DNA of 64,000 nucleotides from an uncultured Rhizobium sp. (lineage in GTDB: Bacteria > Pseudomonadota > Alphaproteobacteria > Rickettsiales > UBA1997), in the NCBI GenBank assembly GCA_964444545.1, contig CAYUHG010000002.1, positions 45,989 through 109,988 of the forward strand. The letters are read 5' to 3'. Shown in pieces: positions 3,268 through 60,578 of this stretch. The position numbers and the translations under genes are program-made. The notes below the pieces were generated by a model. That model made no database searches and was not told the DNA's origin. It saw only the letters and a program-made list of their open reading frames with translations. Position 1 is the first letter of the stretch. The number at the start of each line of letters is the position of its first letter.

Positions 3268-4080
3268 TTACCTCTGGCAAGTTGGACAATAAAAGCTGGA
3301 GCGACCATTTTGTTTTATCTTGGTAATTGAATCGCTACATTGCAAACAGTTTAATTTTTCACGCCCGTAAACTTTGAAAGTATTTTGGAAATTTCCTAAA
3401 TCGCCCGATGCTGTAACATAATCTGAAATTGAAGATCCACCCAAATCAATTGCGCGTTTGATGACTTTTTTGATTGATGAAATCAGTTTTTTTATTTCCG
3501 AATCTTTAAGTGATGAAGCAGCTCGGAGTGGTGAAATTCCTGAATCAAAAAGTGATTCGTTAATGTAAATATTACCAACTCCAACGACAATTTCGTTATC
3601 CATCATAGTGGTTTTGATGTTCATTTTTTTGTCAGATAATTTGCCTTTCAGATCAGCAAAATCAAACTCGTCAGCAAGTGGTTCTGGCCCTAATTTTGCT
3701 AACATTTTGTGATTTTTTAGATTTTTAGTTTCGACTAAATCAACAAAACCAAAACGACGCGCATCGTTTAGAATCAAATGTTTGCCATCTGTAAATTCTA
3801 CTGCAAAATGATCGTGTTTTAACTTTTTGAAATCGCGATTAACTGTGACTTTTCCACTCATTCCCAAATGCACGATCAGACTTTTTTTATTGTCGAAATG
3901 AATAATTAAATAACGTGCTCTTCTGGTGATTTCTGTAATCTTAGCATCTTTCAAAGCTTGTAAATCAAGGCTTGAGTTAATTCGCATTTTTTTATCTGAG
4001 CGAAAAACTTTGATAATTTTCTGACCAACTAAATTTTCCAAACCACGGCGCACCGTTTCAACTTCAGGTAATTCAGGCAT
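3268..4080 (-). CDS. mutM: formamidopyrimidine-DNA glycosylase
   Basis: MPELPEVETVRRGL N-terminus and C-terminal zinc finger CLQC...CPTCQ. Confidence 0.95.
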   Translation of the reverse strand: MPELPEVETVRRGLENLVGQKIIKVFRSDKKMRINSSLDLQALKDAKITEITRRARYLIIHFDNKKSLIVHLGMSGKVTVNRDFKKLKHDHFAVEFTDGKHLILNDARRFGFVDLVETKNLKNHKMLAKLGPEPLADEFDFADLKGKLSDKKMNIKTTMMDNEIVVGVGNIYINESLFDSGISPLRAASSLKDSEIKKLISSIKKVIKRAIDLGGSSISDYVTASGDLGNFQNTFKVYGREKLNCLQCSDSITKIKQNGRSSFYCPTCQR

Positions 4081-6926: not shown

Positions 6927-6948
6927 TCCAAAACAACGCAAAAAAAAA

Positions 6949-6979
6949 GCCAGACCCGATAAAGGTCTGGCTTTTTTTT
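6949..6979 (+). terminator. rho-independent terminator after ansB
   Basis: gccagacc-cgataaa-ggtctggc hairpin followed by a T8 tract. Confidence 0.7.
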
Positions 6980-6994
6980 GGAGCGGGCGAAGGG
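6979..6994. repeat. 16-nt duplicate of the tRNA-Gly 3' end (tggagcgggcgaaggg)
   Basis: Identical to 7121..7136. Both copies are preceded by an A-tract, hairpin and T-tract module. Confidence 0.7.
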
Positions 6995-7081
6995 TAGAAA
7001 ACGTGCTAAAACGCACGTTTTCGGTGCAGATCTTTATTTGAAATGAGATATGAAATGGGCAACGCCGGAACAATTTAGCGC

Positions 7082-7120
7082 AAAAAAAAAGGTCCGACCT
7101 TTTAAGGTCAGACCTTTTTT
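7082..7120 (-). terminator. hairpin terminator downstream of tRNA-Gly
   Basis: ggtccgacc-ttttaa-ggtcagacc flanked by A9 and T6 tracts (bidirectional design). Confidence 0.6.
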
Positions 7121-7195
7121 TGGAGCGGGCGAAGGGATTCGAACCCTCGACATTCACCTTGGCAAGGTGACACTCTACCACTGAGCTACGCCCGC
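7121..7195 (-). tRNA. tRNA-Gly (anticodon GCC), CCA encoded
   Basis: Reverse complement is GCGGGCGTAGCTCAGTGGTAGAGTGTCACCTTGCCAAGGTGAATGTCGAGGGTTCGAATCCCTTCGCCCGCTCCA. It folds as a cloverleaf by hand, with anticodon loop TTGCCAA. Confidence 0.95.
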
Positions 7196-7353: not shown

Positions 7354-7971
7354 ATGAAAATTTTTAACAGCTTTCGTTTTTTCTTGGCGATTTTCCTTTT
7401 AACTTTCTCAGCTTCATGTGTTGAAACTGTCGTGGGAGGATCTTTTGTTACTGCTGCAGTTGCCACTCGTGAAAAAAGTTTAAAAAATACTCGTTATGAC
7501 ATTCAAATCTACACGACTTTGAGTGCTGATTTTGTTCAAAACGGTTTGAAAAATTTTGGTAATTCAATCGACGTAACGGTGAATGAAGGACGTGTTTTAT
7601 TGACAGGTATTGCTCGCGATGTGCAAAAAGCTAAACTTGCTTCTGATCTTGCGTGGAAAGTGATCGGCGTGAAAGAGGTAATTGACGAAATCCAAGTTCG
7701 TGATGGCGAAGGAATGCATATTTCTGATTATACCTCTGCTGTGTATGATTATTTCATTACCGGCAAAATCGAAGGTCGCCTTTTCATGAGCAAAAAAGTT
7801 TCAACCTTTAACTACAAAGTCACTACTGTAAGCGGAACTGTTTACATGATTGGCGTAGCGCAAAATGAATCTGAACTGGAAAAAGTTATCAGTATCGTTT
7901 CAAAAATGCGTGGCGTTAATAAAGTTGTAAGTCACGTGATTTTGGTCAATGACCGTAGAAGAAATGGCTAA
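7354..7971 (+). CDS. BON-domain (OsmY-like) lipoprotein
   Basis: Signal peptide and lipobox FSASC. Two BON-like modules (VTVNEGRVLLTGIA..., VTTVSGTVYMIGVA...). Confidence 0.8.
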   Translation: MKIFNSFRFFLAIFLLTFSASCVETVVGGSFVTAAVATREKSLKNTRYDIQIYTTLSADFVQNGLKNFGNSIDVTVNEGRVLLTGIARDVQKAKLASDLAWKVIGVKEVIDEIQVRDGEGMHISDYTSAVYDYFITGKIEGRLFMSKKVSTFNYKVTTVSGTVYMIGVAQNESELEKVISIVSKMRGVNKVVSHVILVNDRRRNG

Positions 7972-9406
7972 TGTTGACGGCGACAATCAAATTATAACCT
8001 TCGGTTGTCGCTTAAATGCCTATGAATCTGAAGGCATAAAAGAAGCTCTCAAGCAAACTGATCAAAAAAATCTTATCGTTTTCAATTCTTGTGCGGTGAC
8101 TTCGCAAGCGGAAAGAGATTTGCGAGCTGCTTTGCGCAAAGCTCGAAAAAATAATCCTCAAGCAAAGATTGTTGTTACTGGTTGCGCGGCGCAAGTTAAT
8201 CCAGAAAAATATGCCAAAATGGCGGAAGTGGATTTGGTGTTGGGGAATGTTGAGAAATCTGATCCGGCTAGCTATTCCACTCAAACGTCATCCTTGGATC
8301 ATAGAGCCGAGGATCTCGATAGTTTAAGTTCCGAAGAAAACCTAAAAAGATCTTCGATACTGCGTATCAAGGATGACGTTTACGAGCCCGATATTTCTCA
8401 CAAAGATCGCATTTTTTTTGCAGAGAAGAAATCTGCTCAACCTTTTTTAACCGACTTCGAAACCTCTAAAATCAAGGTTAACGACATTATGTCGGTGCGC
8501 GAAACTGCGCCACAACTGGTTTCTTATTTTGAAAATCAAACTCGCGCTTTTTTAGAAATTCAAAATGGCTGTAACCATCGTTGTACTTTTTGCGTAATTC
8601 CGTTTGGTCGCGGTAATTCTCGTTCGGTGGCTTTTGGTGAAATCGTTGCACAAGTTAAAAAAATGGTTGCTGCAGGCCACAAAGAAGTGGTGTTTACAGG
8701 AGTTGATATTTCTGGTTATGGCGAAGATTTGGCGATTAAAATCACTTTGTCGCAGATGATTAAGCGTTTGCTCAAGTTGGTTCCCGAGCTGCCACGTTTA
8801 CGTTTATCCTCAATTGATGTTGCTGAAATTGACGAAGAATTTTTTGAAATATTGCGTACCGAACCACGTTTTATGCCGTACTTGCATTTGAGTGTGCAAT
8901 CAGGAGACGACATAATTTTGAAAAGAATGAAACGCCGTCATACGCGCCAGCAAGTTTTAGATTTTTGTGAAAAAGCTCGCCAAATCAGACCAGACATGAC
9001 TTTCGGTGCTGATATTATCGCCGGATTTCCGACAGAAACGGACGAGATGTTTGAAAATTCGCGCAAATTAATTGAAGAGGCGGGAATAATTTTTACTCAT
9101 ATTTTCCCTTATTCAAAACGCGATGGAACGCCAGCTGCCAAGATGCCGCAGCTTAATGGACAGATTATCAAAGAACGTGCTAAAATTTTGCGTGAAGTTG
9201 GTGCTTCAGAAATGCAAAAATCTTTACAAAGGCAAATTGGCAAAACTTGTAGCGTAATCATTGAGAAAGGCGGTGTTGGAAAAACCGAGAATTTTTTGGA
9301 TGTAAAAATTAATGATGGCGAAAAAATAACTGCTGGCTCTATTATCAACGTCACTATTGCTAGTCTCAACGACGATGGAACTCTGCAAGCAAATCTCTCA
9401 AAATAA
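7949..9406 (+). CDS. mtaB: MtaB-like tRNA methylthiotransferase (radical SAM)
   Basis: N-terminal MTTase domain (ITFGCRLNAYESE), radical-SAM CNHRCTFC and C-terminal TRAM-like region. An alternative start is at 7964. Carries an in-frame repeat insertion (see findings). Confidence 0.85.
   Translation: MTVEEMANVDGDNQIITFGCRLNAYESEGIKEALKQTDQKNLIVFNSCAVTSQAERDLRAALRKARKNNPQAKIVVTGCAAQVNPEKYAKMAEVDLVLGNVEKSDPASYSTQTSSLDHRAEDLDSLSSEENLKRSSILRIKDDVYEPDISHKDRIFFAEKKSAQPFLTDFETSKIKVNDIMSVRETAPQLVSYFENQTRAFLEIQNGCNHRCTFCVIPFGRGNSRSVAFGEIVAQVKKMVAAGHKEVVFTGVDISGYGEDLAIKITLSQMIKRLLKLVPELPRLRLSSIDVAEIDEEFFEILRTEPRFMPYLHLSVQSGDDIILKRMKRRHTRQQVLDFCEKARQIRPDMTFGADIIAGFPTETDEMFENSRKLIEEAGIIFTHIFPYSKRDGTPAAKMPQLNGQIIKERAKILREVGASEMQKSLQRQIGKTCSVIIEKGGVGKTENFLDVKINDGEKITAGSIINVTIASLNDDGTLQANLSK
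8287..8377. repeat. family-1 palindromic element copy inside the mtaB coding sequence
   Basis: Terminal inverted repeats gtcatcctt...aaggatgac, with internal gaggatc/gatcttc arms matching the intergenic copies. Confidence 0.75.
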
Positions 9407-21209: not shown

Positions 21210-21237
21210 ACTTTCTCCTTTTGTTATTGTTAATCTT

Positions 21238-21306
21238 GTCATCCTGAGCATAGCGAAGGATCTTGTTAATTTATCAAACAAGACCCTTCGCCATGCTCAG
21301 GATGAC
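21238..21306. repeat. family-1 palindromic element (short 69-bp copy), gcvT-gcvH intergenic
   Basis: gtcatcctgagcatagcgaaggatcttgtt...aacaagacccttcgccatgctcaggatgac, a near-perfect hairpin. Confidence 0.8.
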
Positions 21307-21320
21307 AACTAAGTTATTAA

Positions 21321-22421
21321 TTATTTTTTAACTGATTTGGTTTTTGCTTCGACAAAAACTGGCGAAGTTAAAACTGCAGGAATTTCGCGATCGCGAACAA
21401 CTGCTGTAACATTATCTCCAACCTTGGCCAAAGCGGTTTCAAAATAGCCTTGTCCGATTGAAACTTTTAGATTTGGTGAAAATCCGCCGCTTGATAAAAC
21501 GCCGATTTTTTTACCATCTTTTCTGATTTCTGTGCCTTCGCGAGCGATGCCGCGATCAAGCAATTTAACACCGATTCTTTTGCGTGACGCGCCTTCAGCT
21601 TTTTCTTTTAAAACACGATCAGCACCAATGAAACTTGTATTGCTTTTGCTAACAACCCAACCAAGAGCGGCTTCGATTGGTGAAGTTGTATCGTCCAAAT
21701 CGTGACCGTAAAGTGGGTAACCCATTTCTAAACGAAGTGAATCGCGAGCGCCAAGTCCGATTGGTTTAACTTCTGATTGAGCTGAAAGATCAAGCCAGAA
21801 TTTCGCCGCGGCAGAGTTTGGAATTGAAACTTCAAAACCATCTTCGCCGGTGTAGCCAGTACGGCTGATGAAAACTTCTTCGCCAGATTTCAATTTGTAG
21901 AAACCGATATTCATGTAAGGCAATTCAGCCAAGTTTCCGGCAGCTAAAAATTTATTTAAAACTTCTTCAGCTTTGCCACCTTGAACCGCGATTAGAGAGC
22001 GATCAGATAGTTCGGTAAAATTAATTCCTGCTGGAAGATTTTTTCTGATCCAAGCTGAATCTTTTTCTTTGCAGCCGGCGTTTAATACGATGAAAAATTT
22101 TGTATCGGTCAATTTGGTGATGATCAAATCATCAATAATGCCGCCTTGTGGATTGGTTAAAACTGTGTATTTCGCAAGATTTGGAGTGCTGAGAGAAAAA
22201 TCAGTTGGCGTGATGTGAGACAAGAATTTTACAACGTCTGCGCCTTCGATGAAGAATTGTCCCATGTGCGAAACATCAAAAATTCCAACATTGCCAGAAC
22301 GAGTCCATTCATGTTCTTTCAACATGCCGTCAGCATATTGAACTGGCATGTCGTAGCCAGCAAATTCAACCATTTTTGCGCCTTGATCGCGGTGAGTTTG
22401 ATTTAGAGCTGTAACTTTCAT
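21321..22421 (-). CDS. gcvT: glycine cleavage system aminomethyltransferase T
   Basis: 366 aa. GAKMVEFAGYDMPVQY, FDVSHMG and ARDSLRLE. Confidence 0.95.
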   Translation of the reverse strand: MKVTALNQTHRDQGAKMVEFAGYDMPVQYADGMLKEHEWTRSGNVGIFDVSHMGQFFIEGADVVKFLSHITPTDFSLSTPNLAKYTVLTNPQGGIIDDLIITKLTDTKFFIVLNAGCKEKDSAWIRKNLPAGINFTELSDRSLIAVQGGKAEEVLNKFLAAGNLAELPYMNIGFYKLKSGEEVFISRTGYTGEDGFEVSIPNSAAAKFWLDLSAQSEVKPIGLGARDSLRLEMGYPLYGHDLDDTTSPIEAALGWVVSKSNTSFIGADRVLKEKAEGASRKRIGVKLLDRGIAREGTEIRKDGKKIGVLSSGGFSPNLKVSIGQGYFETALAKVGDNVTAVVRDREIPAVLTSPVFVEAKTKSVKK

Positions 22422-29290: not shown

Positions 29291-29302
29291 TTCTAACTCG
29301 CT

Positions 29303-29383
29303 GTCATCCTGAACGAAGTGAAGGATCTTGTTAGAAAAATTTGGAGTTTGGCTAACGAGATCATTCACTTTGTTCAGGATGAC
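29303..29383. repeat. family-1 palindromic element; overlaps the last codons and stop of bioA
   Basis: gtcatcctgaacgaagtgaaggatcttg...gagatcattcactttgttcaggatgac. Confidence 0.8.
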
Positions 29384-30636
29384 AATGTAAGAAAAATTGC
29401 ATCGGTAATTTTTCTCAGCTCTGACTTTTTGATGTTAAGCGCTGGCATTACGTAAACGCAATTCGAAAAAGGACGTAAGAAAACTCCGGCGGCGACAAAA
29501 TCTTTCCGCAATCTTTTCATCAATTCAAAATCACCATCAACTTCGACAACGCCAATTGCACCAAGAACTCGTATATCTTTAACTTTTGGCAGTTTACGAC
29601 ATTTTTTTAATTCTTTGCTTAAGAATTTTTCGATTTCAGAAACTTTTTGCTCGTAATTTTCCTTTTCAAAAATATCGAGAGAAGCATTCGCAGCAGCGCA
29701 GGCTAGGGGATTTCCCATAAAAGTTGGGCCATGCATCAAAGCAAAATTAAGTGACTCGTTTAAGAATTTTGTAAAAATTTCTTCTTTGACCAAAGTTGCG
29801 GCTAAGGTCATAGTGCCGCCAGTTAAAGCCTTCCCAACCACTAAAATATCTGGTGAAATTTCGGCGATGTCGCAAGCAAATTTTTTACCTAAACGATAAA
29901 ATCCAACAGCACATTCATCAGCGACAAAAAGAATTTGATGTTTTTTGGCGATGTTAAAAATTTCGTGCAGAATTGTTGTGTCACTAAAAATCATGCCGCC
30001 AGCACATTGAACTAGAGGTTCAACAAAAATTCCGGCTAAAATATTTTTGTTCTCAACGACAAATTTTTCAAAATTTTCTAAGTCAGTTTTATTTTTTGGT
30101 AGATCTAGTGAAAAATTTTTCAGCAAAATTGGTTGAAATTTTTCATGCATGCCAGAATCAAGATCAGCAAGAGACATTGCCCCAGTAGTGTCACCGTGAT
30201 AAGAATTTTTGAAAGAAATAAATTTTGTTTTATTGCGATCGCCAGAATTGATATGAAATTGCCAGCAAATTTTCATCGCAACTTCTATGGCAGTTGATCC
30301 AGAATCAGAGAAAAATACGCGATCCATTTTGCTAAACTGACAAAGACGATGTGCTAGCTTGTAAGTTGGATCGGTAGCAAATCCAGCTAACATAATGTGC
30401 GATAATTTTTTCGCCTGACTCGCAATCGTTTTGACTAAATTAGGATGTTTGTAACCATGTGCTGTTGACCACCAAGAGCTGATACCATCAATTAAAACTC
30501 TACCATCTTTTAAGAAAATCTTACTACCTTTCGCATCAATAACTTCAAGCTGCGGGACGTGATTCTGCATTTGAGTATAAGGGAGCCAAATATGATGACT
30601 TCCTTTCTGAAAATTAGACTCAAAATTATTTTTCAT
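29374..30636 (-). CDS. bioA: adenosylmethionine-8-amino-7-oxononanoate aminotransferase
   Basis: Start at MKNNFESNFQKGSHHIWLPYTQM; class III aminotransferase pattern. An alternative start is at 30654. Confidence 0.85.
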   Translation of the reverse strand: MKNNFESNFQKGSHHIWLPYTQMQNHVPQLEVIDAKGSKIFLKDGRVLIDGISSWWSTAHGYKHPNLVKTIASQAKKLSHIMLAGFATDPTYKLAHRLCQFSKMDRVFFSDSGSTAIEVAMKICWQFHINSGDRNKTKFISFKNSYHGDTTGAMSLADLDSGMHEKFQPILLKNFSLDLPKNKTDLENFEKFVVENKNILAGIFVEPLVQCAGGMIFSDTTILHEIFNIAKKHQILFVADECAVGFYRLGKKFACDIAEISPDILVVGKALTGGTMTLAATLVKEEIFTKFLNESLNFALMHGPTFMGNPLACAAANASLDIFEKENYEQKVSEIEKFLSKELKKCRKLPKVKDIRVLGAIGVVEVDGDFELMKRLRKDFVAAGVFLRPFSNCVYVMPALNIKKSELRKITDAIFLTLSS

Positions 30637-31381
30637 TGAACAAAACCGGATCAATTTTTTCTGCTGTTTCTACCCAAACATTTTGCGGAAAGTAAGATTT
30701 GAGTAAACGAAAAGCTGCCAAAGATTCTTTTTGTAAACCGATTTTGTAATACACTTCCGTAAGTCGGAAGAAGGCTTCTGGAACTTGATTGGTGCCGCGA
30801 TAGCGCTCAGTAACTTCGGTAAAATTATGAATCGCACCAACATAGTTTTTATTATACATCTGGTAACGTCCAATTGACATTTTTGCTCCAGCCAAATGTT
30901 CATCAACAAAAGATAATTTATTGCGAGCATCAATTGAATGTTCATCAGCGGGAAAACGTGCAATCAACTCTCGGAAAGTCATAGAAGCTTCGTGAGTATT
31001 ATCTTGTGCGCGATTGATTTCAGGAATCTGGTTATAAAAGGATAATCCCTTCATATACATCATATAAGGCACAGCTTCATTTGCTGGATTGAGTCGAATA
31101 AAATCATCGACTGTAGAAACTAATTTGGTGTGATCTTCATCTTTATAATAGGCGTAAACCGCCATGGTTTGTGCTTTGATCGCCCATTTTGAAAAAGGAT
31201 AATCATCATCAATTTTCGAAAAAGCTTCAGCGGCGGTGGTATAGTTTTTATCTTTTAACTGCTTCATTGCTTTGGTGTAAGCTATTTCAGCATTTTCTTT
31301 TTCTTCCTTCTTCTTAGCACAAGAAAAGAGCAACAAGCTGATTGATAAAATGGTTAATGCGATGCGGAAATTTTTTTTCAT
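30626..31381 (-). CDS. bamD: outer membrane protein assembly factor BamD (TPR lipoprotein)
   Basis: Lipobox LFSC and a YfiO-like TPR pattern (AIKAQTMAVYAYYK, GAKMSIGRYQ). Confidence 0.85.
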   Translation of the reverse strand: MKKNFRIALTILSISLLLFSCAKKKEEKENAEIAYTKAMKQLKDKNYTTAAEAFSKIDDDYPFSKWAIKAQTMAVYAYYKDEDHTKLVSTVDDFIRLNPANEAVPYMMYMKGLSFYNQIPEINRAQDNTHEASMTFRELIARFPADEHSIDARNKLSFVDEHLAGAKMSIGRYQMYNKNYVGAIHNFTEVTERYRGTNQVPEAFFRLTEVYYKIGLQKESLAAFRLLKSYFPQNVWVETAEKIDPVLFNEK

Positions 31382-36777: not shown

Positions 36778-36875
36778 GAAACCCCTCGACCCTACGGGCC
36801 ATCCCCCTTGACAGGGGGGAAAGTTGACTAAGCCCCCCTGTCAAGGGGGATGGCCCGTAGGGTCGGGGGGTTTTC
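36778..36875. repeat. family-2 GC-rich nested palindromic element
   Basis: gaaacccctcgaccctacgggccatcccccttgacagggggg...cccccctgtcaagggggatggcccgtagggtcggggggttttc. A second copy lies at 60443..60548. Confidence 0.8.
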
Positions 36876-40096: not shown

Positions 40097-40113
40097 GGTA
40101 ATTTACAATATTT

Positions 40114-40194
40114 GTCATCCTGAGCGTGAGCGAAGGATATCGAAATTCAGTTCTGAATTTGGCTAACTAGATCCTGCGCTGCGCTTAGGATGAC
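40114..40194. repeat. family-1 palindromic element between rnj and the alaS C-fragment
   Basis: gtcatcctgagcgtgagcgaaggata...ctagatcctgcgctgcgcttaggatgac. Confidence 0.8.
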
Positions 40195-40208
40195 AGAAAA
40201 TTATTTTT

Positions 40209-41948
40209 TTAGATTAAGTGTACTGTCACTTCCAACGCTGGTCGTTTGCCCATTAAATCCTCAAAAATTTTGAGTAATTTTCCGCGCAACGCTTTTTCAA
40301 TTTCAGCAGTTGAAATTGTGTCTTTTAATTTCTTTTTCTTCTTTTTCAAAAAGCTCAAACCTTTGCTGGCTTTGTGTAAACCAAGTTCTTTAGCTTTGTG
40401 ACGTAAGAAAATTTGGATTTCTTGATTAATTGCGTGTTCAGCATCGCGATCAGATTTTAAATCATACGATCCAATACATTGAACGCGTGGTTTCGCCATT
40501 AATTCCAGATTGTCATCGAGTGCTAAAGAAACGGTAACAATTCCGGCACTTTGTAATTTACGACGTTCGCGAATCACTTCGCCATCAAGGTTGAGAAGCT
40601 GTTTGCCGTCAACGCCGAAATAGCCGTGTTTAACGAATCCGACAATTCCGCAAGATGCTTGAAAATCTTCTTGTAATTTTACCGCCAAACCATTTTCGAT
40701 TTGGATAGTTTTAGGAACGCCGCAATCACGCGCCAATTCTGCGTGGGTTTTGGTGTGCAAAAATTCGCCGTGAACTGGAATAGCAATTTTTGGACGCGCC
40801 AGCGCATACATTTCTTTCAACTCATCTTGCGAAGGATGGCCAGAAACGTGGACGAAATGATCTTTTTCCGTCATCACATCGATTTGTTTTTTGGCCAAAG
40901 CATCAAACAATCCGAAGATTTTTTTCTCATTTCCCGGAATAATTTTTGACGAGAAAATCATCAAATCGCCAACAGTAAATTTGATGCTTGGATGATGGCC
41001 AGTAGCGATCTTGCGTGCTGCAGCGTTTGGTTCGCCTTGGCAGCCAGTACAGATCACCAACAAATCTTTTTTGTCGTGAAATTTGATTTCGCGATCGGAA
41101 ATAAATTCGAAACCAGAAAAGTCGTAGCCGCTTTTTTTAGCGACTTCATAAATTCGGTGTAGCGAAAATCCTGCGAGCACAATTTTGCGTCCAACTTCTT
41201 TGGCAATTGACGCGATGGTGTAAATACGCGCAATGTTGGATGCAAAAGTTGTAACGCCAACGATGCCTTTGCGGCCTTCGATCAAGTATTTTAGAGATTT
41301 GTGAAGATCGCCTTCTGATCTGGAATGTCCTTCAGAAATGGCGTTGGTTGAATCGCAAATTACCGCGAGGAACTTTCCTTGATCGCCCCATTCGCGAATT
41401 TTTTCTTTTTCAGAAACTTCGCCGATAACAGGATTTGGATCGAATTTCCAATCTCCTGTGTGCAAAATATTTCCTTTCGGAGTTTTGATGATGAGCGCTT
41501 TCATCTCAGGAACTGAGTGCGTCAAGCCAAGAAATTCAACGGCGAAAGGACCGATTTGCAAATCTTTGCTGGAGTCGATCAAACGAATTGGAACTTGTTT
41601 ATCGAGTTTAAATTCTTCGAGTTTGGTGCGCAAAAAATTTGCTGCTAAGTTGGAAGCGTAAATTGGAACTTCAAGCTCGCGCCATAAATATTGTACCGCG
41701 CCTAGGTGATCTTCGTGAATGTGAGTTAAAATAATCCCAAGAAGATTTTTTTTGTTGGCTTTGATGAAGGAAATATCGGGAGTCATCATGTCGATTCCCG
41801 GCACGTCGGACGCGAACCCAACACCGCAATCAACCATCAGCCATTTACCGTCGAGATGGTAAAGATTTAAATTCATCCCAATTTCGTTAGCGCCGCCGAG
41901 AGGCAGAAATAGCAAATCGGAAAAGTGTTTTTTTAAGTTAAGATCCAT
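40209..41948 (-). CDS. rnj: ribonuclease J (metallo-beta-lactamase / beta-CASP)
   Basis: LTHIHEDHLGA (HxHxDH), beta-CASP region and 579 aa length. Confidence 0.9.
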   Translation of the reverse strand: MDLNLKKHFSDLLFLPLGGANEIGMNLNLYHLDGKWLMVDCGVGFASDVPGIDMMTPDISFIKANKKNLLGIILTHIHEDHLGAVQYLWRELEVPIYASNLAANFLRTKLEEFKLDKQVPIRLIDSSKDLQIGPFAVEFLGLTHSVPEMKALIIKTPKGNILHTGDWKFDPNPVIGEVSEKEKIREWGDQGKFLAVICDSTNAISEGHSRSEGDLHKSLKYLIEGRKGIVGVTTFASNIARIYTIASIAKEVGRKIVLAGFSLHRIYEVAKKSGYDFSGFEFISDREIKFHDKKDLLVICTGCQGEPNAAARKIATGHHPSIKFTVGDLMIFSSKIIPGNEKKIFGLFDALAKKQIDVMTEKDHFVHVSGHPSQDELKEMYALARPKIAIPVHGEFLHTKTHAELARDCGVPKTIQIENGLAVKLQEDFQASCGIVGFVKHGYFGVDGKQLLNLDGEVIRERRKLQSAGIVTVSLALDDNLELMAKPRVQCIGSYDLKSDRDAEHAINQEIQIFLRHKAKELGLHKASKGLSFLKKKKKKLKDTISTAEIEKALRGKLLKIFEDLMGKRPALEVTVHLI

Positions 41949-42720: not shown

Positions 42721-42734
42721 AAAAAATTATGGGT

Positions 42735-42816
42735 GTCATCCTGAGCGTTAGCGAAGGATCTCGTTAAGCAAACTCGGAGTTTGTCTCATGAGATCCTTGG
42801 TTACGCTTAGGATGAC
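42735..42816. repeat. family-1 palindromic element between the aminotransferase gene and coaX
   Basis: gtcatcctgagcgttagcgaaggatctcg...gagatccttggttacgcttaggatgac. Confidence 0.8.
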
Positions 42817-42826
42817 AGGAGAATGT

Positions 42827-44086
<1,260 letters not shown>

Positions 44087-52271: not shown

Positions 52272-52314
52272 GGATCACTTGTTGATGTAACCAAGATGGT
52301 TGATCCTTTTTTTT
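52272..52314 (+). terminator. probable terminator after trmD
   Basis: Imperfect hairpin ggatca...tgatcc followed by T8. Confidence 0.55.
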
Positions 52315-52324
52315 ATCTCTCAAA

Positions 52325-53806
52325 ATGACTTCTTTCTCAGAATTAAATTTAAATCCAAAAATTCTCGTATCCCTTGAAAAAAAAGGTTATGTGAATCCAA
52401 CTCCAATCCAGCTTCAAGCTATTCCACCGGTTTTAGAAGGCAAAGATCTTTTGGGAATTGCCCAAACTGGAACTGGCAAAACTGCGGCGTTCTCGCTTCC
52501 TATCATCCATAATTTAGCGAAAAGCGGAATCTCAGTAAAAAGCGGCTGCGTGCGCGCTTTGATCTTAACCCCAACTCGTGAACTTGCTTCGCAAATCGCC
52601 GAAAATGTTGATGCTTACAGCAAAGATTTAAATTTACGTCACGCGGTGATTTACGGTGGAGTTTCTGATCGCGCTCAAATTAATGCTTTGCAACGTGGTG
52701 TTGATATTTTGATCGCAACCCCGGGACGATTGCTAGATTTGACTTCTCAAGGTCACATTCGTTTTATGCAAGTTGAAGTTTTGGTTTTGGATGAAGCTGA
52801 TCGTATGCTTGATATGGGTTTTGTTAACGACATCAAAAAAATCATCGCGCGTTTGACTAACAAAAGACAGACGTTGTTTTTCTCGGCAACTATGCCGCCA
52901 GCGATTACTGATTTAGCCAGTTCAATTTTAACCGATCCGATACGCATCGAGGTTACTCCTCAATCAACCACAGTTGAGCGTATTGATCAGAAAATTATGT
53001 TTGTGGAATGGCGTGATAAATTGCCGTTGTTGCGTCATCTTCTAAAACAGCCAGATGCAACGAGTGTGATCGTTTTTTCACGTACCAAACATGGCGCCAA
53101 TGACGTAGAAGATTATTTAGAACGTAATCGTATCGCTGCTGCAGCAATTCACGGCGACAAAGATCAAGATCAGCGCGAGAAAGCTTTAAACAGATTTCGT
53201 GAAGGAAAAATTCAGGTGTTAGTCGCAACCGATGTTGCAGCGCGCGGTATTGATATTCCTGCGATCAGCCATGTAATTAATTTCGATATTCCTGTTGATC
53301 CAGAAAGTTATGTTCATCGTATTGGTCGTACTGCTAGAGCAGGTCGACAAGGTGTGGCAATTTCGTTTTGTGATCCAAATGATGACAAGCTTTTGTTGGC
53401 GGTTGAGAAGGCGATTAACTACAAAATTCCAGTTGATAATTCTCATCCTTTCAGCACCAGAAGATCAAAAGAATCAGTAGCTCAAAATGATTCTCGTAAG
53501 CTTGAAAGAAAGCCGCAACGTCAAGAAGATAGAGTTGAGAATCGTGCGCCAAAGCAACGTGAAGAACGTCATGAAAATCGTCAAGAACATCACAGAGAAA
53601 ATAGCCAACCAAAAAAGAAACAAGGCGGAATTTTAAGTTTTATTCTCGAGCTTTTTGGCATCAAAAAAACAGTTGAGAAAAAACATCATAGAAGAAGAAA
53701 TAATTCGGGAAAAAACGATTTCAGAAAATCTGATTCAAACAGATCGAGAAAACCAAGAAGAAATCACAGCAATAGATCGCCCAATAATTCAAAAAATTTT
53801 AGCTAA
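52325..53806 (+). CDS. DEAD-box ATP-dependent RNA helicase (RhlE-like), basic C-terminal tail
   Basis: AQTGTGKT, DEAD, SAT and HRIGRTARAG. The tail is rich in R/K/N/E. Confidence 0.9.
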   Translation: MTSFSELNLNPKILVSLEKKGYVNPTPIQLQAIPPVLEGKDLLGIAQTGTGKTAAFSLPIIHNLAKSGISVKSGCVRALILTPTRELASQIAENVDAYSKDLNLRHAVIYGGVSDRAQINALQRGVDILIATPGRLLDLTSQGHIRFMQVEVLVLDEADRMLDMGFVNDIKKIIARLTNKRQTLFFSATMPPAITDLASSILTDPIRIEVTPQSTTVERIDQKIMFVEWRDKLPLLRHLLKQPDATSVIVFSRTKHGANDVEDYLERNRIAAAAIHGDKDQDQREKALNRFREGKIQVLVATDVAARGIDIPAISHVINFDIPVDPESYVHRIGRTARAGRQGVAISFCDPNDDKLLLAVEKAINYKIPVDNSHPFSTRRSKESVAQNDSRKLERKPQRQEDRVENRAPKQREERHENRQEHHRENSQPKKKQGGILSFILELFGIKKTVEKKHHRRRNNSGKNDFRKSDSNRSRKPRRNHSNRSPNNSKNFS

Positions 53807-54453: not shown

Positions 54454-56508
54454 TTACCAAGATTTTTGTGGTCTAAAAGATCCGCCACCAGAAGGTCTTC
54501 TGTCACCGAAAGGTTTTCTGTTACGATCACCAAAAGGTTTTCTATCGCCGTTACTTGATCTGCGGTCGTTTCTTTGGCCGTCTCTACGATCACTGAATCC
54601 GCCGCTAGATCTTTCAGAATTTCCGAAAGACGAGTTTCCTCTGCGATCGTTGTTTCCAAATGAGTTGCCGCGATTGTCGTCGTTACGATCAGATCCGCGA
54701 GAATTTCTATCACGGTTACCGCCAAATCCTGAACCGTCTCTGCGGTCGCGATTTGGTCTGCCGAATCCATCGCCGCTTCTACCACCGAAGCCTTCACCAC
54801 TTCTGCCGCCGCGAGAAGAGTTTCTGTCTCTGCCGCCAAATCCTGAAGAATTTCTTTGACCACCAGATGATCTTTGATCTCTGCCTTGTGGTAAGCCGTC
54901 GCGTCCGGTGAAAGAAGGTTGTTCATCACGATTTCTGCGATCTCTACCGCCCCCGTTACGTGATTCAGTTTTTTTACCTTTCAACCAACCTAGACCAAAA
55001 CCACCGCCTTTTTCTTCTTCTTTAACGCGGAACGGAGTGTTACGATCTACAGATTGAGCTGCTCGTTTTTTACCAAAACCGATGAAGTTCAAAAGGCTGC
55101 TTTTTGTGCCGTCAGGTTGTTGATCTTCACTACGTTTTGGTTTTCTGTCGAAATTTCTTTTACCGTCTCTGCGATCAGATCTTTCGCCTCTCTCAGAAGA
55201 ATGAGGTGAAGATCTTCTATCGTTATTTCTGCCGCCTCTGTTTCTGTCACCAGAACTTCTTCCTTCGCCAGAACTAGCTGGACGAGAACGTTGTCCTGAA
55301 CGCTGTCCAGAATTTTGTCTTCTAGGACGATCAGAATTGTTAGAATCTTGCGAAGAAGAAGGCGCTGCTTCTACACCGTGATACGCATGGGTGGTATCGA
55401 CTGGAATATTAAAATTTATAGTTTTTTCCACTGCTTTTAAAAGTCTGGTTTCTGAAGGATCACAAAAAGAAATAGCAACACCTTGGCGACCGGCGCGTGC
55501 TGTGCGGCCGATACGGTGCACATAACTTTCTGGATCCATCGGGATGTCAAAATTAATAACATGGCTGATTGAAGGGACATCAATGCCACGTGCTGCGATA
55601 TCTGTTGCGATAAGAACTTGTACCTTACCTTCGCGGAAGCTGGCAAGTGCTTTTTCACGAGCACCTTGCGATTTGTTTCCGTGTATTGCTGCAACCGCAA
55701 TCGAATTTTTTTCTAAAAATTCTAAAATGCGATTTGCACCGTGCTTGGTTTTTGAAAATACCAAAACGCTTTGTGCTTCTTCATCTTTCAAGATTCTTTT
55801 TAGAAGTGAAAGCTTATTTCCTTTTTGCACCTGCATAAGTTTTTGTTCGATACGCTCAACAGTTGTTGATTGTGGCGTAATTTCGATTTTCACCGGATCT
55901 TTCAAAATAGAATGAGCTAAGTCGTTGATTGCGTCAGGCATGGTTGCTGAGAAGAAAAGCGTTTGTCTTTCTTCCGGAATTTTGGCGATAATTTTTTTAA
56001 CATCGTTAAAGAAACCCATGTCGAGCATGCGATCAGCTTCGTCTAAAACAAAAATTTCCAAATTCGAAAAACGAATGTGACCTTGAGTTGCTAAATCAAG
56101 CAAACGTCCGGGAGTTGCGATTAAAATATCGACACCGCGTTTCATCGTAGCGATTTGTGGACGTTCAGAAACGCCGCCAAAAACTACTGTGTGAGTTAAG
56201 TGTAAATCTTTGCCGTAAAGTTTGATGTTATCAGCGATTTGCGAAGCGAGTTCGCGAGTTGGAGTTAAAATCAAAGCACGTGCGCCGTTGCTTCTAACCT
56301 CTTTATTGCTAGCGGCAAGATTTTGTAAAATAGGTAAAGAAAATGCGGCGGTTTTGCCAGTTCCGGTTTGGGCGATTCCTAAAAGATCTTTGCCTTCAAG
56401 AACTGCGGGAATTGCTTGAAGTTGGATCGGAGTTGGTGTTGTGTATCCTTTGCTTTCAAGTGCTGAAAGAATTTTTGAGTTTAAGTTTAAGTTTTGAAAA
56501 GTTGTCAT
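54454..56508 (-). CDS. DEAD-box ATP-dependent RNA helicase paralogue with a roughly 300-aa RGG/RD/SR-rich low-complexity tail
   Basis: The core is about 70 % identical by eye to 52325..53806 (same AQTGTGKT/DEAD/SAT/HRIGRTARAG). The tail carries GGRDRNSSRGGRSGEGFGGRSGDGFG and tandem KPFGDRNRKPFGDRR. Confidence 0.9.
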   Translation of the reverse strand: MTTFQNLNLNSKILSALESKGYTTPTPIQLQAIPAVLEGKDLLGIAQTGTGKTAAFSLPILQNLAASNKEVRSNGARALILTPTRELASQIADNIKLYGKDLHLTHTVVFGGVSERPQIATMKRGVDILIATPGRLLDLATQGHIRFSNLEIFVLDEADRMLDMGFFNDVKKIIAKIPEERQTLFFSATMPDAINDLAHSILKDPVKIEITPQSTTVERIEQKLMQVQKGNKLSLLKRILKDEEAQSVLVFSKTKHGANRILEFLEKNSIAVAAIHGNKSQGAREKALASFREGKVQVLIATDIAARGIDVPSISHVINFDIPMDPESYVHRIGRTARAGRQGVAISFCDPSETRLLKAVEKTINFNIPVDTTHAYHGVEAAPSSSQDSNNSDRPRRQNSGQRSGQRSRPASSGEGRSSGDRNRGGRNNDRRSSPHSSERGERSDRRDGKRNFDRKPKRSEDQQPDGTKSSLLNFIGFGKKRAAQSVDRNTPFRVKEEEKGGGFGLGWLKGKKTESRNGGGRDRRNRDEQPSFTGRDGLPQGRDQRSSGGQRNSSGFGGRDRNSSRGGRSGEGFGGRSGDGFGRPNRDRRDGSGFGGNRDRNSRGSDRNDDNRGNSFGNNDRRGNSSFGNSERSSGGFSDRRDGQRNDRRSSNGDRKPFGDRNRKPFGDRRPSGGGSFRPQKSW

Positions 56509-56922
56509 TTTAAATGTTAAAAGTTTGGCTCTTGAGTGCGCTTTCAGAGCCTTGTAAGAAGAAAATTAATGAAGCTTCTTTTAAGTTTGTTTTATCCCGC
56601 TTGAATCTTTGTTTAAAAGGTCGGTAGGGATCTTATCAGATTTTGAATTAGCCTAAATTCAAGAAATCATCGAAGTGCTTTGGCATCTACAAAGAGGACT
56701 GAATTTTATAGAGATTGAAAGGTTTTTTCAGGTCTCAGGTCTGTTACAAGTTATGCTACATCTTTATTTGGCGACACCAAATATTTGTGTGGTGGTTGCA
56801 TTATGAAAGTCATAATTTATAAATGCTACCATTAACATTTAATTATAAATTTAAATTAGGAAAAACTAAATATAGTCGGTAGAAGCTGAATCTATAAAAA
56901 CCAGAAAAAATTCTATTATTTT

Positions 56923-58917
56923 GTGAAAAAAATCAAACTCATTAAAACTAAAAGCACAAAGCGTTTAAAAGCTTTCTCGATGATCGAGTTGTCGATCGTT
57001 ATTTTGATTATTGGTATTTTGATTTCGGGAATTTTGGCTTCGAATGCGATTATCAAGAAGTTTCGTATTCAGACGGCTCAGACTCTGACGATGTCGTCAC
57101 CGGTGCAGGGGATTCCGGATTCAGTTTTGTGGTTGGAGAGTAGTTTGGATAAAAGTTTCAAAGAGTCAGAGAGTTCTGATACTACTAGTTTAAGTGCTTG
57201 GTATGATGTTCGAGAATCTGTGAACAAGAACAATGCGACCCAGAGCAACAGCGGTAATTATCCAACTTATTCGAATTCGATTAACAGTATTCAAGCTGTG
57301 AAGTTTGATGGAACTAATGGTTATTTCAGCGTTGATGGCAGTGTTTTGAACAACACGAATTACACGATTTTTGTTTTAGAGCAGAGGGAGAGCAGCAAGA
57401 GCGGGAATTATTTTATTGGCGATTCTTCATCAGGTAATGAGTCGACAACTAATAAGAACTTAGTGTTAGGCTATAGTGCTGATGGTACGATTAAGCATTC
57501 TCAATCGAGCGATAATTCTTACACCTCATCAATTTCTTCTTACTCATCTTCGAACGGTAAGCCGAGAGTTTTCACGTTTGTGCATGATAAGGCTTCAGGG
57601 AAGAAGACTTATATTAATGGTCTTTTGGCTGCGACTTCTACTGATACGAATCATTTATCTGGGATGACTACTTTGACGATTGGTAAGTCATATCAAGGTC
57701 AGATTGGCGAGGTTGTGATGTTTGCGAGAGCGCTGACAACTGAAGAGCGTCAATCGGTTGAAGATTATCTAGGTAAAAAATGGAATAGTAAGATTCTAAG
57801 ATCAGTTGGATCATCATCTTCATCTGGAGGAATTGGTGGAAGTTGTGTTGGAGGTACGGTGAGTGATTCTGGATGTTTGACTGCTTGTACTGTTACTGCG
57901 GCGACTGGGATTACTGATACTACGGTTGGTGGTGGAACAGGATCTTTGACTTGCAATACCGCAGCAAACTTCACTGGCTCTCTGCCGTACACTTGTTTGA
58001 ATGGAGTATTTGCCTATACTGGTGCGACTTCTTGTTCTTGTGCTACTGGATATACAGCAAGTGGTTCGACTTGCGTAACTTCAGCTTGTACCGGTGGTAC
58101 AGAATCAACAGCGACGGTTTCTGGTATAACTTATAAAGTTCATACTTTTACTTCTGATGGCAGCTTATCTTGTCCAACAAGTCGTTCTGCTGAGGTTTTG
58201 GTAGTGGGTGGTGGTGGTTCAGGTGGTTCTGCAAATCCGAATGCTGGTGGTGGTGGCGGCGGTGGTGGTGGTGTTGTTTATTCCGCATCATATACTCTTT
58301 CTACTAGTTCATATACTGTTACTGTCGGTGCTGGTGGTGCTGGTGTTGCGGCTACTGTTGCTCCGCCAGGAGTTCCTGGTAATAATGGTGGTGATTCTTC
58401 ATTTGGAACTTTGACTGCAAAGGGTGGTGGTGGTGGTGGCGCTCTTTATAATAATTCTACTGGTTTAAGCGGTGGATCTGGTGGTGGTGGATCTTGGTTT
58501 GCCAGTGGAGGATCTTCAACTCAAACTGCTCAAGCCAATCAAACCGCTCATTACGGTAGTGTTGGTGGTACTAGTACTGCACAAGCATGCGGTGCTGGCG
58601 GTGGCGGTGCTGGTGGTACTGCGAGTGGTACGGGAAACTGTATTGGTGGCTCGGGAGTATTAATTTCAATGACTGGCGGATATTATAGTGCTGGTGGTGG
58701 TGGATCTGGTGGAAACCCTAATGGAAGTTTACCGGGTGGTGCTGGTGGTACTGGTGGTGGTGGTGCTGGTGGTAAAGGTGCTCCAAATACAACAGCTGGT
58801 GGCAATGGAACGGCGAATACTGGAAGTGGAGGTGGTGGATCAACTAGCTATACATCTAGAGTTACTTATTCTGGAAATGGTGGATCTGGTATTGTAATCG
58901 TGCGCTACGCTCAATAG
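56923..58917 (+). CDS. prepilin-leader / LamG / Cys-rich / glycine-rich-domain protein (664 aa)
   Basis: GTG start; KRLKA|FSMIELSIVILIIGILISG. LamG-like GQIGEVVMFARALTTEERQSVEDYLGKKW. Cys-rich stretch, then VLVVGGGGSGG...GGSGIVIVRYAQ. Confidence 0.75.
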   Translation: MKKIKLIKTKSTKRLKAFSMIELSIVILIIGILISGILASNAIIKKFRIQTAQTLTMSSPVQGIPDSVLWLESSLDKSFKESESSDTTSLSAWYDVRESVNKNNATQSNSGNYPTYSNSINSIQAVKFDGTNGYFSVDGSVLNNTNYTIFVLEQRESSKSGNYFIGDSSSGNESTTNKNLVLGYSADGTIKHSQSSDNSYTSSISSYSSSNGKPRVFTFVHDKASGKKTYINGLLAATSTDTNHLSGMTTLTIGKSYQGQIGEVVMFARALTTEERQSVEDYLGKKWNSKILRSVGSSSSSGGIGGSCVGGTVSDSGCLTACTVTAATGITDTTVGGGTGSLTCNTAANFTGSLPYTCLNGVFAYTGATSCSCATGYTASGSTCVTSACTGGTESTATVSGITYKVHTFTSDGSLSCPTSRSAEVLVVGGGGSGGSANPNAGGGGGGGGGVVYSASYTLSTSSYTVTVGAGGAGVAATVAPPGVPGNNGGDSSFGTLTAKGGGGGGALYNNSTGLSGGSGGGGSWFASGGSSTQTAQANQTAHYGSVGGTSTAQACGAGGGGAGGTASGTGNCIGGSGVLISMTGGYYSAGGGGSGGNPNGSLPGGAGGTGGGGAGGKGAPNTTAGGNGTANTGSGGGGSTSYTSRVTYSGNGGSGIVIVRYAQ

Positions 58918-60396: not shown

Positions 60397-60442
60397 TTTT
60401 TGTAAAATTTAGAATCGTGTGGTTTTATCGAGTTCGGCTAAA

Positions 60443-60548
60443 GAAACCCCCCGACTCGCTGCGCGAGCCACCCCCCTTGACAGGGGGGCGATGGTCCGAG
60501 TCCCACCCCCCTGTCAAGGGGGGGTGGCCCGCAGGGTCGGGGGGTTTC
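60443..60548. repeat. family-2 GC-rich nested palindromic element inside the efflux operon
   Basis: gaaaccccccgactcgctgcgcgagccaccccccttgacagggggg...cccccctgtcaaggggggtggcccgcagggtcggggggtttc. Confidence 0.8.
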
Positions 60549-60578
60549 CTTAACCAAACTCAATATTTCAACTACTCA

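Follow-up and report, generated by a model that had tools for sequence, protein, structure and literature searches.

A CGTC-tagged palindromic repeat in frame within the methylthiotransferase gene mtaB of an uncultured freshwater alphaproteobacterium

Introduction

Repetitive extragenic palindromic (REP) sequences of the CGTC-tagged superfamily carry a CGTC or TGTC tag (variant CCTC), a stem of 8 to 9 bp that starts A-T, A-T, a loop of 4 to 5 nt, and a short unpaired tail, mostly CCA, and they occur as inverted dimers (Di Nocera, De Gregorio & Rocco 2013, BMC Genomics 14:522, PMC3733652). Their hosts are mostly alphaproteobacteria, in which the repeats are mostly intergenic, lie no more than 20 nt from the 3′ ends of open reading frames (ORFs), and have no known transposase (PMC3733652). 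Two of these families in Rickettsia conorii are Rickettsia palindromic elements (RPEs) under another name (CGTC-1 is RPE-6 and CGTC-4 is RPE-4), and in R. conorii and other alphaproteobacteria, in-frame CGTC dimers in housekeeping genes code for 20 to 30 residues, e.g., SFLRKQES...DSRFRGND (PMC3733652). RPE-1 (Ogata et al. [quoted passage not shown] Here, we describe a palindromic repeat inside mtaB, the gene for a tRNA ms2t6A methylthiotransferase, in a 64,000-nt stretch of DNA (hereafter, the window; GenBank assembly GCA_964444545.1, contig CAYUHG010000002.1, positions 45,989 to 109,988) from an uncultured alphaproteobacterium recorded as Rhizobium sp. and assigned by GTDB to the Rickettsiales (UBA1997).

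The segment is probably an inverted dimer of CGTC-tagged REP hairpins, that is, a nonautonomous selfish palindrome of the RPE-4/RPE-6 class, situated in a disordered linker of a functional MtaB. On one or a few occasions, a stop-free variant of the repeat would have come to lie in a permissive loop, in place of part of an ancestral 21-residue segment, and would have persisted because it was harmless; the allele would then have been spread or lost via homologous recombination and deletion, with neither the peptide nor the hairpin having a function of its own. A preliminary description, made from the letters of the window, had recognized the palindrome and likened it to RPEs: the observation is real, and the essentials of that interpretation are supported. 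Elements of this kind, intragenic CGTC REP/RPE dimers, have already been described, and what is new is the host gene and the uncultured lineage. No earlier report of a palindromic element within a methylthiotransferase came up in a search of the literature.

Results and Discussion

A full-length palindromic repeat within mtaB

The core of the element (coordinates of all features are given in Table 1) reads GTCATCCTTGGATCATAGAGCCGAGGATCTCGATAG...AAAGATCTTCGATACTGCGTATCAAGGATGAC, and its termini, GTCATCCTTG...CAAGGATGAC, define what we call sub-family A′. Translation of 8288-8377 yields S114-D143 of the protein, SSLDHRAEDLDSLSSEENLKRSSILRIKDD, and sequence, frame, and translation are all as originally described. 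Every A′ copy is preceded by C and followed by G, such that the ends read CGTC...GACG; the extent of ~91 bp first assigned to the element thus holds for its core, but the element is slightly larger, occupying 8286-8378 with its tags and 8280-8386 with an imperfect outer palindrome. These outer inverted flanks also occur around copies outside mtaB, and the prefix TQT(P)SSL is common to the window copy, to a copy in an iron-containing alcohol dehydrogenase (Fe-ADH) gene of the relative L082, and to the homologue P0006 (L numbers denote loci of relatives and metagenomes, P numbers homologous proteins, and WIN the window's own mtaB copy).

In the left REP unit, the stem contains nine Watson-Crick pairs, one G-U pair, and one mismatch, an anatomy that agrees with 118 units from metagenome copies, and the stem tip of the right unit, GATAC/GTATC, pairs perfectly. 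The central stem, GAGGATCTCGTGAG/CTCACGAGATCCTC, is perfect in L082 and L087, unlike the eroded window copy. For the element stretch, folding gives a long hairpin of -37.3 kcal/mol (z = -4.3), better than the fold of any of 200 shuffled sequences. When copies are compared with one another, the window copy reaches -28 kcal/mol and that of L081 -18, as against -41 to -68 for five other mtaB copies, -36 for a shortened copy in L019, and -46 to -67 for four full-length noncoding copies. The palindrome is therefore decaying in the window's lineage and has been largely destroyed in its closest relative, L081, in whose linker (z = -1.1) it is nearly gone.

Against a profile built from the window's own four intergenic relatives, the sole further match is 8287-8377, end to end and weak (13 bits, E = 0.005). 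Four copies with exactly the mtaB-type termini exist outside mtaB (at 14180, 16871, and 20964 in L082 and at 19760 in L085), and a profile from these four alone recovers 8287-8377 end to end with 54 bits (E = 7.9e-16), which excludes a chance palindrome. An independent assembly (L208, GCA_013565655.1) contains the same gene with the same insert, with 9 differences from the window over most of 2.7 kb plus 8 clustered within ~40 bases of a contig end, and its agreement excludes an assembly artifact. On these matches, the insert is a full-length member of an abundant, mostly noncoding repeat family of related freshwater alphaproteobacteria. Rfam, searched over the window at gathering thresholds, reports only an RNase P RNA and one tRNA, with no match at the element.

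The host protein bears the features expected of a methylthiotransferase: a UPF0004 domain (residues 15 to 99) with three cysteines, a Radical_SAM domain (residues 203 to 374) with its CxxxCxxC motif, a C-terminal beta domain, and the corresponding fold. The cluster cysteines (C20, C48, C79, C208, C212, and C215) are invariant in all 73 homologues, and a fold search with the AlphaFold2 (AF2) model returns Bacillus subtilis MtaB (9a6d), MiaB, and RimO as top matches; the sources of the relatives likewise name those proteins MtaB. Pfam reports no TRAM domain at E ≤ 0.001; the model nevertheless has C-terminal beta strands at 433-483. Outside the hypervariable part of the linker, the core of the gene shows a ratio of nonsynonymous to synonymous divergence (dN/dS) of 0.047 (at dS 0.72) in comparison with the 90%-identical relative L081, and of 0.10 in the pair L082-L083, values that indicate a functional gene under strong purifying selection. 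The preliminary description had named a decayed mtaB as an outcome that would count against it; a pseudogene is ruled out by the intact ORF, the invariant catalytic residues, and the dN/dS of 0.047. That the whole observation reflects a pseudogene, an artifact, or a chance palindrome has virtually no probability left: the only weak point of the case is the 13-bit score against the window's own intergenic copies, and this alternative is already refuted by the state of the gene, the insert in L208, and the E value of the profile from copies outside mtaB.

Hosts of related copies are uncultured lake metagenome-assembled genomes (MAGs) labelled Rickettsiales or Alphaproteobacteria, not Rickettsia proper. 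Species names that are implausible, "Rickettsia typhi" and "Rhizobium sp." among them, are attached to several MAG records. Ankyrin-repeat and Sel1-repeat proteins adjoin mtaB-lysS in several relatives (flanks of L081, L083, and L085), which hints at a host-associated lifestyle of the lake lineage.

A variant family of CGTC-tagged REPs

The four intergenic palindromes of the window belong to a related group, sub-family A, with TGTC tags and the termini TGTCATCCTGAGC...GCTYAGGATGACA; the nearest of them to the mtaB copy, at 42734-42817, scores 19 bits with the A′ profile. One minus-strand ORF (29374-30654) enters the dimer at 29302-29384 by 10 nt and takes its stop codon from the repeat, namely, the TGA within the CCTGAAC terminus.

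In an A′ unit, the tag CGTC is followed by the stem ATCCTTGG with a variable tip of a few bases; after a 3-nt loop come the returning stem ...CCGAGGAT and the tail CTC. The tag opens with C in 76 of the 118 metagenome units and with T in 39, and at least four nested pairs form in the variable tip of 95 (versus 2% of shuffled controls); these 95 paired units contain 34 different 4-nt tip stems, and the loop measures 3 nt in 84 of them. The stem tips of A′ units in metagenome loci L091-L207 are, in other words, hypervariable yet self-complementary. The family is abundant in lake metagenomes, with at least 117 contigs and 80 full-length copies, 77 of which lie outside long ORFs. The metagenome loci also contain the element in frame in other ORFs, for which the preliminary description had proposed a scan: those of the dihydroxy-acid dehydratase IlvD, an MBOAT acyltransferase, and a heavy-metal P-type ATPase.

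How closely do these repeats follow the published CGTC pattern? (i) In tag and stem, the mtaB copy conforms, with CGTC at 8286-8289 and GACG at 8375-8378, and the stem starts with A-T pairs (ATCCT...AGGAT) in every A and A′ unit. (ii) All copies are inverted pairs that fold as large hairpins, and the window's four noncoding copies lie 10 to 14 nt from stop codons, in keeping with the intergenic, ORF-proximal habit of the class. (iii) A′ departs from the class in stem and loop size, having ~11 paired positions, including a T-G pair, rather than 8 to 9 (ATCCTTGG plus a hypervariable but paired tip of 3 to 5 bp), and a loop usually of 3 rather than 4 to 5 nt. The window's A units are closer to the published size (9 positions with a tandem G-A, loop 3 to 4 nt). 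(iv) The tail is CTC(G) in both A and A′ instead of CCA, and the tags face outward. The one copy that ends in CCA is a canonical CGTC-1 dimer at 18744-18826 in L082, TGTC-ATCCCCGC-GAAG-GCGGGGAT-CCA (reading VIPAKAGI). Given its longer stem, 3-nt loop, and CTC tail, we treat A′ as a variant family within the CGTC REP class; mtaB as a host gene and uncultured freshwater alphaproteobacteria as hosts are outside the lists of PMC3733652.

The reading phase also connects the two: relative to the tag, A′ uses the phase of the R. conorii dimers (SS...DD here, SF...ND there, or S-F/S-L...N/D-D for both), which gives SSL...KDD in MtaB. In the comparison with named RPEs, which covered the intragenic peptides of R. 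conorii CGTC-1 and CGTC-4, tag and phase agree with those of A′, but the peptide differs (SSLAQSAEDL versus SFLRKQES). The palindrome had been called an analogous, possibly independent, case of an RPE; the likeness, an in-frame palindrome in functional genes (mtaB and the three listed above), stands, but the case is not independent in kind, its CGTC REP anatomy being that of the RPE-4/RPE-6 class. A′ resembles RPE-1 as a dispersed palindrome in frame in unrelated, apparently functional genes, with a peptide judged compatible with the host fold; RPE-1, by its description, is longer (~150 bp) and encodes a conserved peptide. Long ORFs contain only ~4% of the A′ copies in the metagenome sample; for RPEs, the intragenic share is much larger. 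An "ORF-bearing element" in the RPE-1 sense finds no support, since no single frame is privileged: the three phases are open in 11 to 26% of reads.

Two other systems invite comparison. In REPIN/RAYT systems, doublets of GTAG-tagged REPs, mobilized by RAYT tyrosine transposases, likewise join two inverted short hairpins into one larger palindrome of high copy number without target-site duplications, but the tag here is CGTC or TGTC, not GTAG, and neither a RAYT nor another transposase was found, none having been sought. As with MITEs, a small nonautonomous repeat can be read as part of a host protein; unlike MITEs, the element lacks terminal inverted repeats of the insertion-sequence type and a target-site duplication. 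Target-site duplications or direct repeats were sought in the flanks of 15 copies and none were found, the flanks instead extending the palindrome.

In the mtaB frame, the consensus of the window's intergenic copies reads TCA TCC TGA, as the preliminary description correctly noted, and it had taken the TTG found in place of TGA as a sign of selection keeping the frame open. The A′ termini, however, occur in all mtaB copies and in the noncoding copies of related genomes, and the extra T of the left arm (TTG) is mirrored by an extra A (CAA) in the right arm. Because TTG is matched by CAA and is present in noncoding A′ copies, the element already lacked the stop in its source sub-family and underwent no repair within mtaB. 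TTG is therefore a trait of A′ and not a fix made after insertion; selection acted as a filter on which repeat variant could persist in mtaB.

The linker and the constraint on the insert

Comparison of linkers covered 120 homologues and 35 loci. From LVLGN to GCNHRC, the linker is 106 residues long in the window and 81 to 126 across the clade of lake MAGs, versus 52 to 54 in seven other alphaproteobacteria (a figure that rests on the seven parsable outgroup loci plus shorter overall match lengths, as the motif parser failed on most outgroup loci); in MiaB, ~12 residues separate the corresponding blocks. The linker had been described as unusually long, which is correct, but the element accounts for only part of the excess, since ~30 residues belong to a clade-wide extension, HKDRIFF..KKS...FLT..ETSK, in whose region AF2 predicts helices at 150-162 and 169-174.

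MiaB (7mjv) aligns to residues 15-99 and 169-444 only, a gap that puts the insert between the UPF0004 and radical-SAM domains, within the linker; together with the Pfam boundaries, this bears out the position first proposed for it. In the AF2 model, residues 114-149 (the insert and six further residues) have a predicted local distance difference test (pLDDT) score below 50 and no secondary structure, an inter-domain coil such as the fold-compatible sites of RPEs. The model that the preliminary description had called for thus shows a low-confidence, unstructured loop in the inter-domain linker, and the insert is predicted to be a floppy loop of ~30 to 35 residues.

Within this loop, substitutions are frequent. 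dN/dS is 0.50 in the hypervariable segment of the pair WIN-L081 and 0.72 in the insert of L082-L083; the three residues at which the protein departs from the 99%-identical P0001 (118, 125, and 137) all belong to the insert, and of the 9 nonterminal differences that separate the DNA from L208, 3 are within the 91 nt. To judge by these rates, constraint on the insert is relaxed, and it behaves as a tolerated passenger. An example of a tryptic peptide expected from the translated insert is AEDLDSLSSEENLK.

Origin of the insert and traffic through the linker

Orthologues P0002, P0006, P0007, P0011/P0027, P0024, P0038, P0080, P0114, and L019 contain the same element, which in each starts 3 to 5 codons past the invariant Tyr109 and in the same frame. 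A homologous peptide at this position in orthologues lacking any repeat family had been named as a case against the repeat interpretation. The peptide is indeed present, but in L082 (P0011) and L085 (P0038), the only relatives with enough flanking sequence for a check, the family also exists outside mtaB, and that case accordingly does not arise. In the comparison of orthologues, which the preliminary description had proposed, the insert is absent from the 21-residue alleles, and its peptide recurs in several orthologues.

In a neighbor-joining tree of the protein core, constructed without support values and used only to show scatter, A′-bearing orthologues are dispersed among proteins with a 21-residue, nonpalindromic segment, ENFSNS..QEKITNSDSDIA. 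This segment, which is also present in more distant members, is probably ancestral. In view of the missing support values, we rely instead on a direct comparison of L088 (P0006) with L005 (P0073), which are 92 to 95% identical over 400 nt on each side; between TAT and CAY AAA GAT, the 171-nt repeat-bearing segment of L088 and the 63-nt ancestral segment of L005 are unalignable. Conserved flanks around unalignable segments amount to block replacement and not to a fresh insertion, and the swap would most simply be explained by homologous recombination with a donor allele. What had been pictured as a clean insertion is thus better described as replacement of a cassette in a hypervariable linker, with the element truly in the mtaB frame. 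In the window, the event amounts to 38 codons in place of 18 ancestral ones, and the copy is older than the split from the 90%-identical L081.

A′ is not the only repeat in this position. L004 has a CGTC REP dimer with its tags inward (KQVQDD...HPELVSGS, z = -6.6); L007 has a GC-rich palindrome of ~100 nt (z = -13), a second copy of which lies elsewhere in the L007 locus; L010 has inverted arrays of the heptamer GTCGTAA/TTACGAC (3313-3414, z = -7.8); and L014 has two tandem terminator-like hairpins, AAAAGGGGTCAGACCCCTTTT, that read RGQTPF..KGSDPF (3292-3366, z = -10.9). In a clade of ~52% identity (L037 and L041), a different CGTC REP, CGTC-ATTGCGAGG...GCAAT-CCAG, is in the linker. For ancestral-type alleles, by comparison, z mostly ranges from -2 to +1 (-3.1 in a single case). 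Judging from these folds, at least four other palindromic inserts occupy the linker in other lineages. The L011 linker holds an inverted array of GGCGATA-type heptamers (3292-3381), and that of L047, at 165 residues, is rich in His and Gln.

Such clustering could mean that the linker DNA is a preferred REP target, for example, with a resident hairpin attracting more, and that the A′ copies of different mtaB lineages, like the other palindromic families in this position, are independent site-specific insertions. This active hot spot would account for the scatter of A′-bearing proteins over the core tree, for unrelated palindromes at the same Tyr-His segment in L004, L007, L010, and L014, for the second copy of the L007 insert outside mtaB, and for the different CGTC REP of L037 and L041. 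It would also fit the affinities of the copies: those in L085, L086, and L019 have non-mtaB copies as nearest neighbors, and stem tips vary. However, the copies of WIN, L082, L083, L087, and L088 are mutual nearest relatives (by a small margin, 91 nt giving too low a resolution to tell single from multiple origin), all A′ copies begin 3 to 5 codons past Tyr109 in one frame, and P0006 and WIN share the flank STQ(P/T)SSL. The replacement in L088/L005, moreover, leaves nothing of the ancestral 63 nt and so resembles allele exchange, and a permissive disordered loop combined with a selective filter predicts the same clustering without targeting, the scatter itself coming from a tree without support values. 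We therefore regard targeting as possible but rather unlikely.

A broader version, which we offer tentatively and at similarly low odds, is that Tyr109-His151 is a landing pad, colonized repeatedly and independently, in these freshwater alphaproteobacteria and at least one further clade, by at least five unrelated hairpin families; a resident hairpin would draw in the next element, the cassettes would be exchanged between lineages by recombination, and the stem tips of the repeat would covary even within coding DNA. Its colonists would be the two CGTC REP arrangements, the 100-nt GC-rich palindrome, the heptamer-array palindromes, and the terminator-like hairpins. Stem-tip covariation in coding DNA, if true, would point to hairpin-templated mutation or repair acting on translated DNA.

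Several points weigh against our preferred account of a selfish repeat tolerated in a disordered linker after one or a few entries. Of the repeats in the window's 64 kb, only that in mtaB belongs to A′, the four noncoding copies being of sub-family A; transposition within the lineage is thus unsupported, and the allele may have come by recombination. The AF2 model derives from a shallow alignment (73 sequences at ≥70% identity; mean pLDDT 76), and the insert is presumed, from the reading frame, to be part of the mature enzyme. In addition, mtaB stem tips differ by lineage without losing their pairing (the window has GATAC/GTATC, L082 has GAGCC/GGCTC, and L085 has GAACCC/GGGTTC), and synonymous divergence in the pair L082-L083 is lower in the insert (0.27) than in the core (0.90), as it is in WIN-L082 (0.71 versus 1.16). 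Paired tips and low insert dS are not predicted by a purely neutral single origin; any one of independent insertions, recombination, mutation templated by the hairpin, and selection on structure could produce them.

The last of these would imply exaptation, with the hairpin (in mRNA or DNA, e.g., through a translation pause between domains or through mRNA stability) or the peptide having gained a function for which it is kept by selection. Pairing maintained in several lineages despite sequence change, and the low insert dS of both pairs, are what such a function would produce, but the arms of quasi-palindromes can also be kept complementary by templated mutation, with no need for selection. 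Furthermore, the palindrome is decaying here and largely lost in L081, genomes whose flanks are 92 to 95% identical may either have the insert or lack it, the 21-residue allele without a palindrome is retained by many members of the clade, and dN/dS in the insert is 0.5 to 0.7, with substitutions concentrated there. We consider exaptation improbable and retain the tolerated selfish repeat as the best explanation.

Implications

The selfish palindromes that are read within essential proteins of Rickettsia and a few cultured alphaproteobacteria, i.e., the RPE phenomenon, extend with this element to an uncultured and abundant freshwater lineage, and the known host genes now include mtaB, ilvD, and those for an MBOAT protein and a P-type ATPase. 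A single inter-domain linker also provides a natural experiment on insertion tolerance, in which presence of the insert varies at 92 to 95% flank identity and unrelated hairpin repeats fill the same 20 to 40 codons according to lineage, while the core of the enzyme stays constrained. This hypervariable, recombining linker that gathers unrelated hairpin repeats is, in our view, the most interesting by-product of the analysis. For annotation, peptides such as SSL..EDL..RSS.LR.KDD in conserved enzymes call for caution, being derived from repeats and not new domains.

Table 1. Features of the mtaB locus, repeat relatives in the window, and in-frame A′ copies at other loci (window positions unless a locus is named)
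Feature	Position	Strand	Basis or remark
mtaB	7949-9406	+	ORF call; intact; 485-aa tRNA ms2t6A methylthiotransferase
Core element, sub-family A′, GTCATCCTTG...CAAGGATGAC	8287-8377		nhmmer, profile of non-mtaB copies, positions 1-91 of 91
Full palindrome with imperfect outer extension (CTCAAAC|G...C|GTTTACGAG)	8280-8386		RNA fold; encodes T111-E146
Left REP unit	8286-8317	+	CGTC 8286-8289, stem ATCCTTGGATC 8290-8300, loop ATA, stem GAGCCGAGGAT 8304-8314, tail CTC
Spacer between units, GATAGTTTAAGTTCCGAAGAAAACCTAAA	8318-8346		A′ profile alignment; central stem eroded here
Right REP unit, inverted	8347-8378	-	GACG 8375-8378 (minus-strand CGTC), stems 8350-8360 and 8364-8374, loop TGC
Hypervariable part of the linker (residues 110-150), bounded by invariant Y109 and H151	8276-8398	+	41 aa here; ancestral-type allele, 21 aa
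Clade-specific linker extension H151-S173, HKDRIFFAEKKSAQPFLTDFETS	8399-8467	+	Not repeat; in all 120 close homologues, absent from the seven outgroups parsed
Intergenic relative, sub-family A, TGTC-tagged, CCTGAGC arms	21237-21307		14 nt 3′ of the stop of minus-strand ORF 21321-22421
Intergenic relative, sub-family A	29302-29384		Between convergent ORFs
Intergenic relative, sub-family A	40113-40195		14 nt 3′ of the stop of minus-strand ORF 40209-41948
Intergenic relative, sub-family A	42734-42817		10 nt 3′ of the stop of minus-strand ORF 42827-44029
Locus with in-frame A′ copy, dihydroxy-acid dehydratase IlvD	L130, 1748-3625	-	Metagenome locus
Locus with in-frame A′ copy, MBOAT acyltransferase	L152, 2408-4012	-	Metagenome locus
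Locus with in-frame A′ copy, heavy-metal P-type ATPase	L179, 1577-4036	-	Metagenome locus
Locus with A′ copy at N terminus of called Fe-ADH gene	L082, 20929-21435	+	True start may be downstream
Bacterial RNase P RNA, class A	16262-16717	-	Rfam, 241 bits

Other features of the window

A second palindromic repeat, rich in G+C and intergenic, is present at 36779-36873 and at ~60437-60552 (...CCCCCCTGTCAAGGGGG(A/G)TGGCCCG.AGGGTCGGGGGG...). At the former site, its 41-nt arms are 98% complementary; it is without a CGTC tag and stands out in a genome of 39% G+C. Closer to mtaB, two terminator-like direct repeats (CGCAAAAAAAAAG-hairpin-TTTTTTTTGGAGCGGGCGAAGGG) at 6937-6994 and 7079-7136 are 79% identical, the second overlapping the 3′ end of a minus-strand tRNA gene at 7124-7195. 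The RNase P RNA gene overlaps the ends of two mechanically called ORFs, 15857-16303 on the minus strand and 16682-17746 on the plus strand.

Toward the far end of the window, the segments 52311-53008 and 55825-56522 (~700 nt each) are inverted with respect to each other and 72 to 76% complementary. They make up the 5′ parts of ORF 52325-53806 on the plus strand and ORF 54454-56508 on the minus strand, which are probably facing paralogous genes. Next to them, ORF 56923-58917 (664 aa) includes a long, glycine-rich repetitive region, with GGTGGTGGT-type repeats at 58207-58807.

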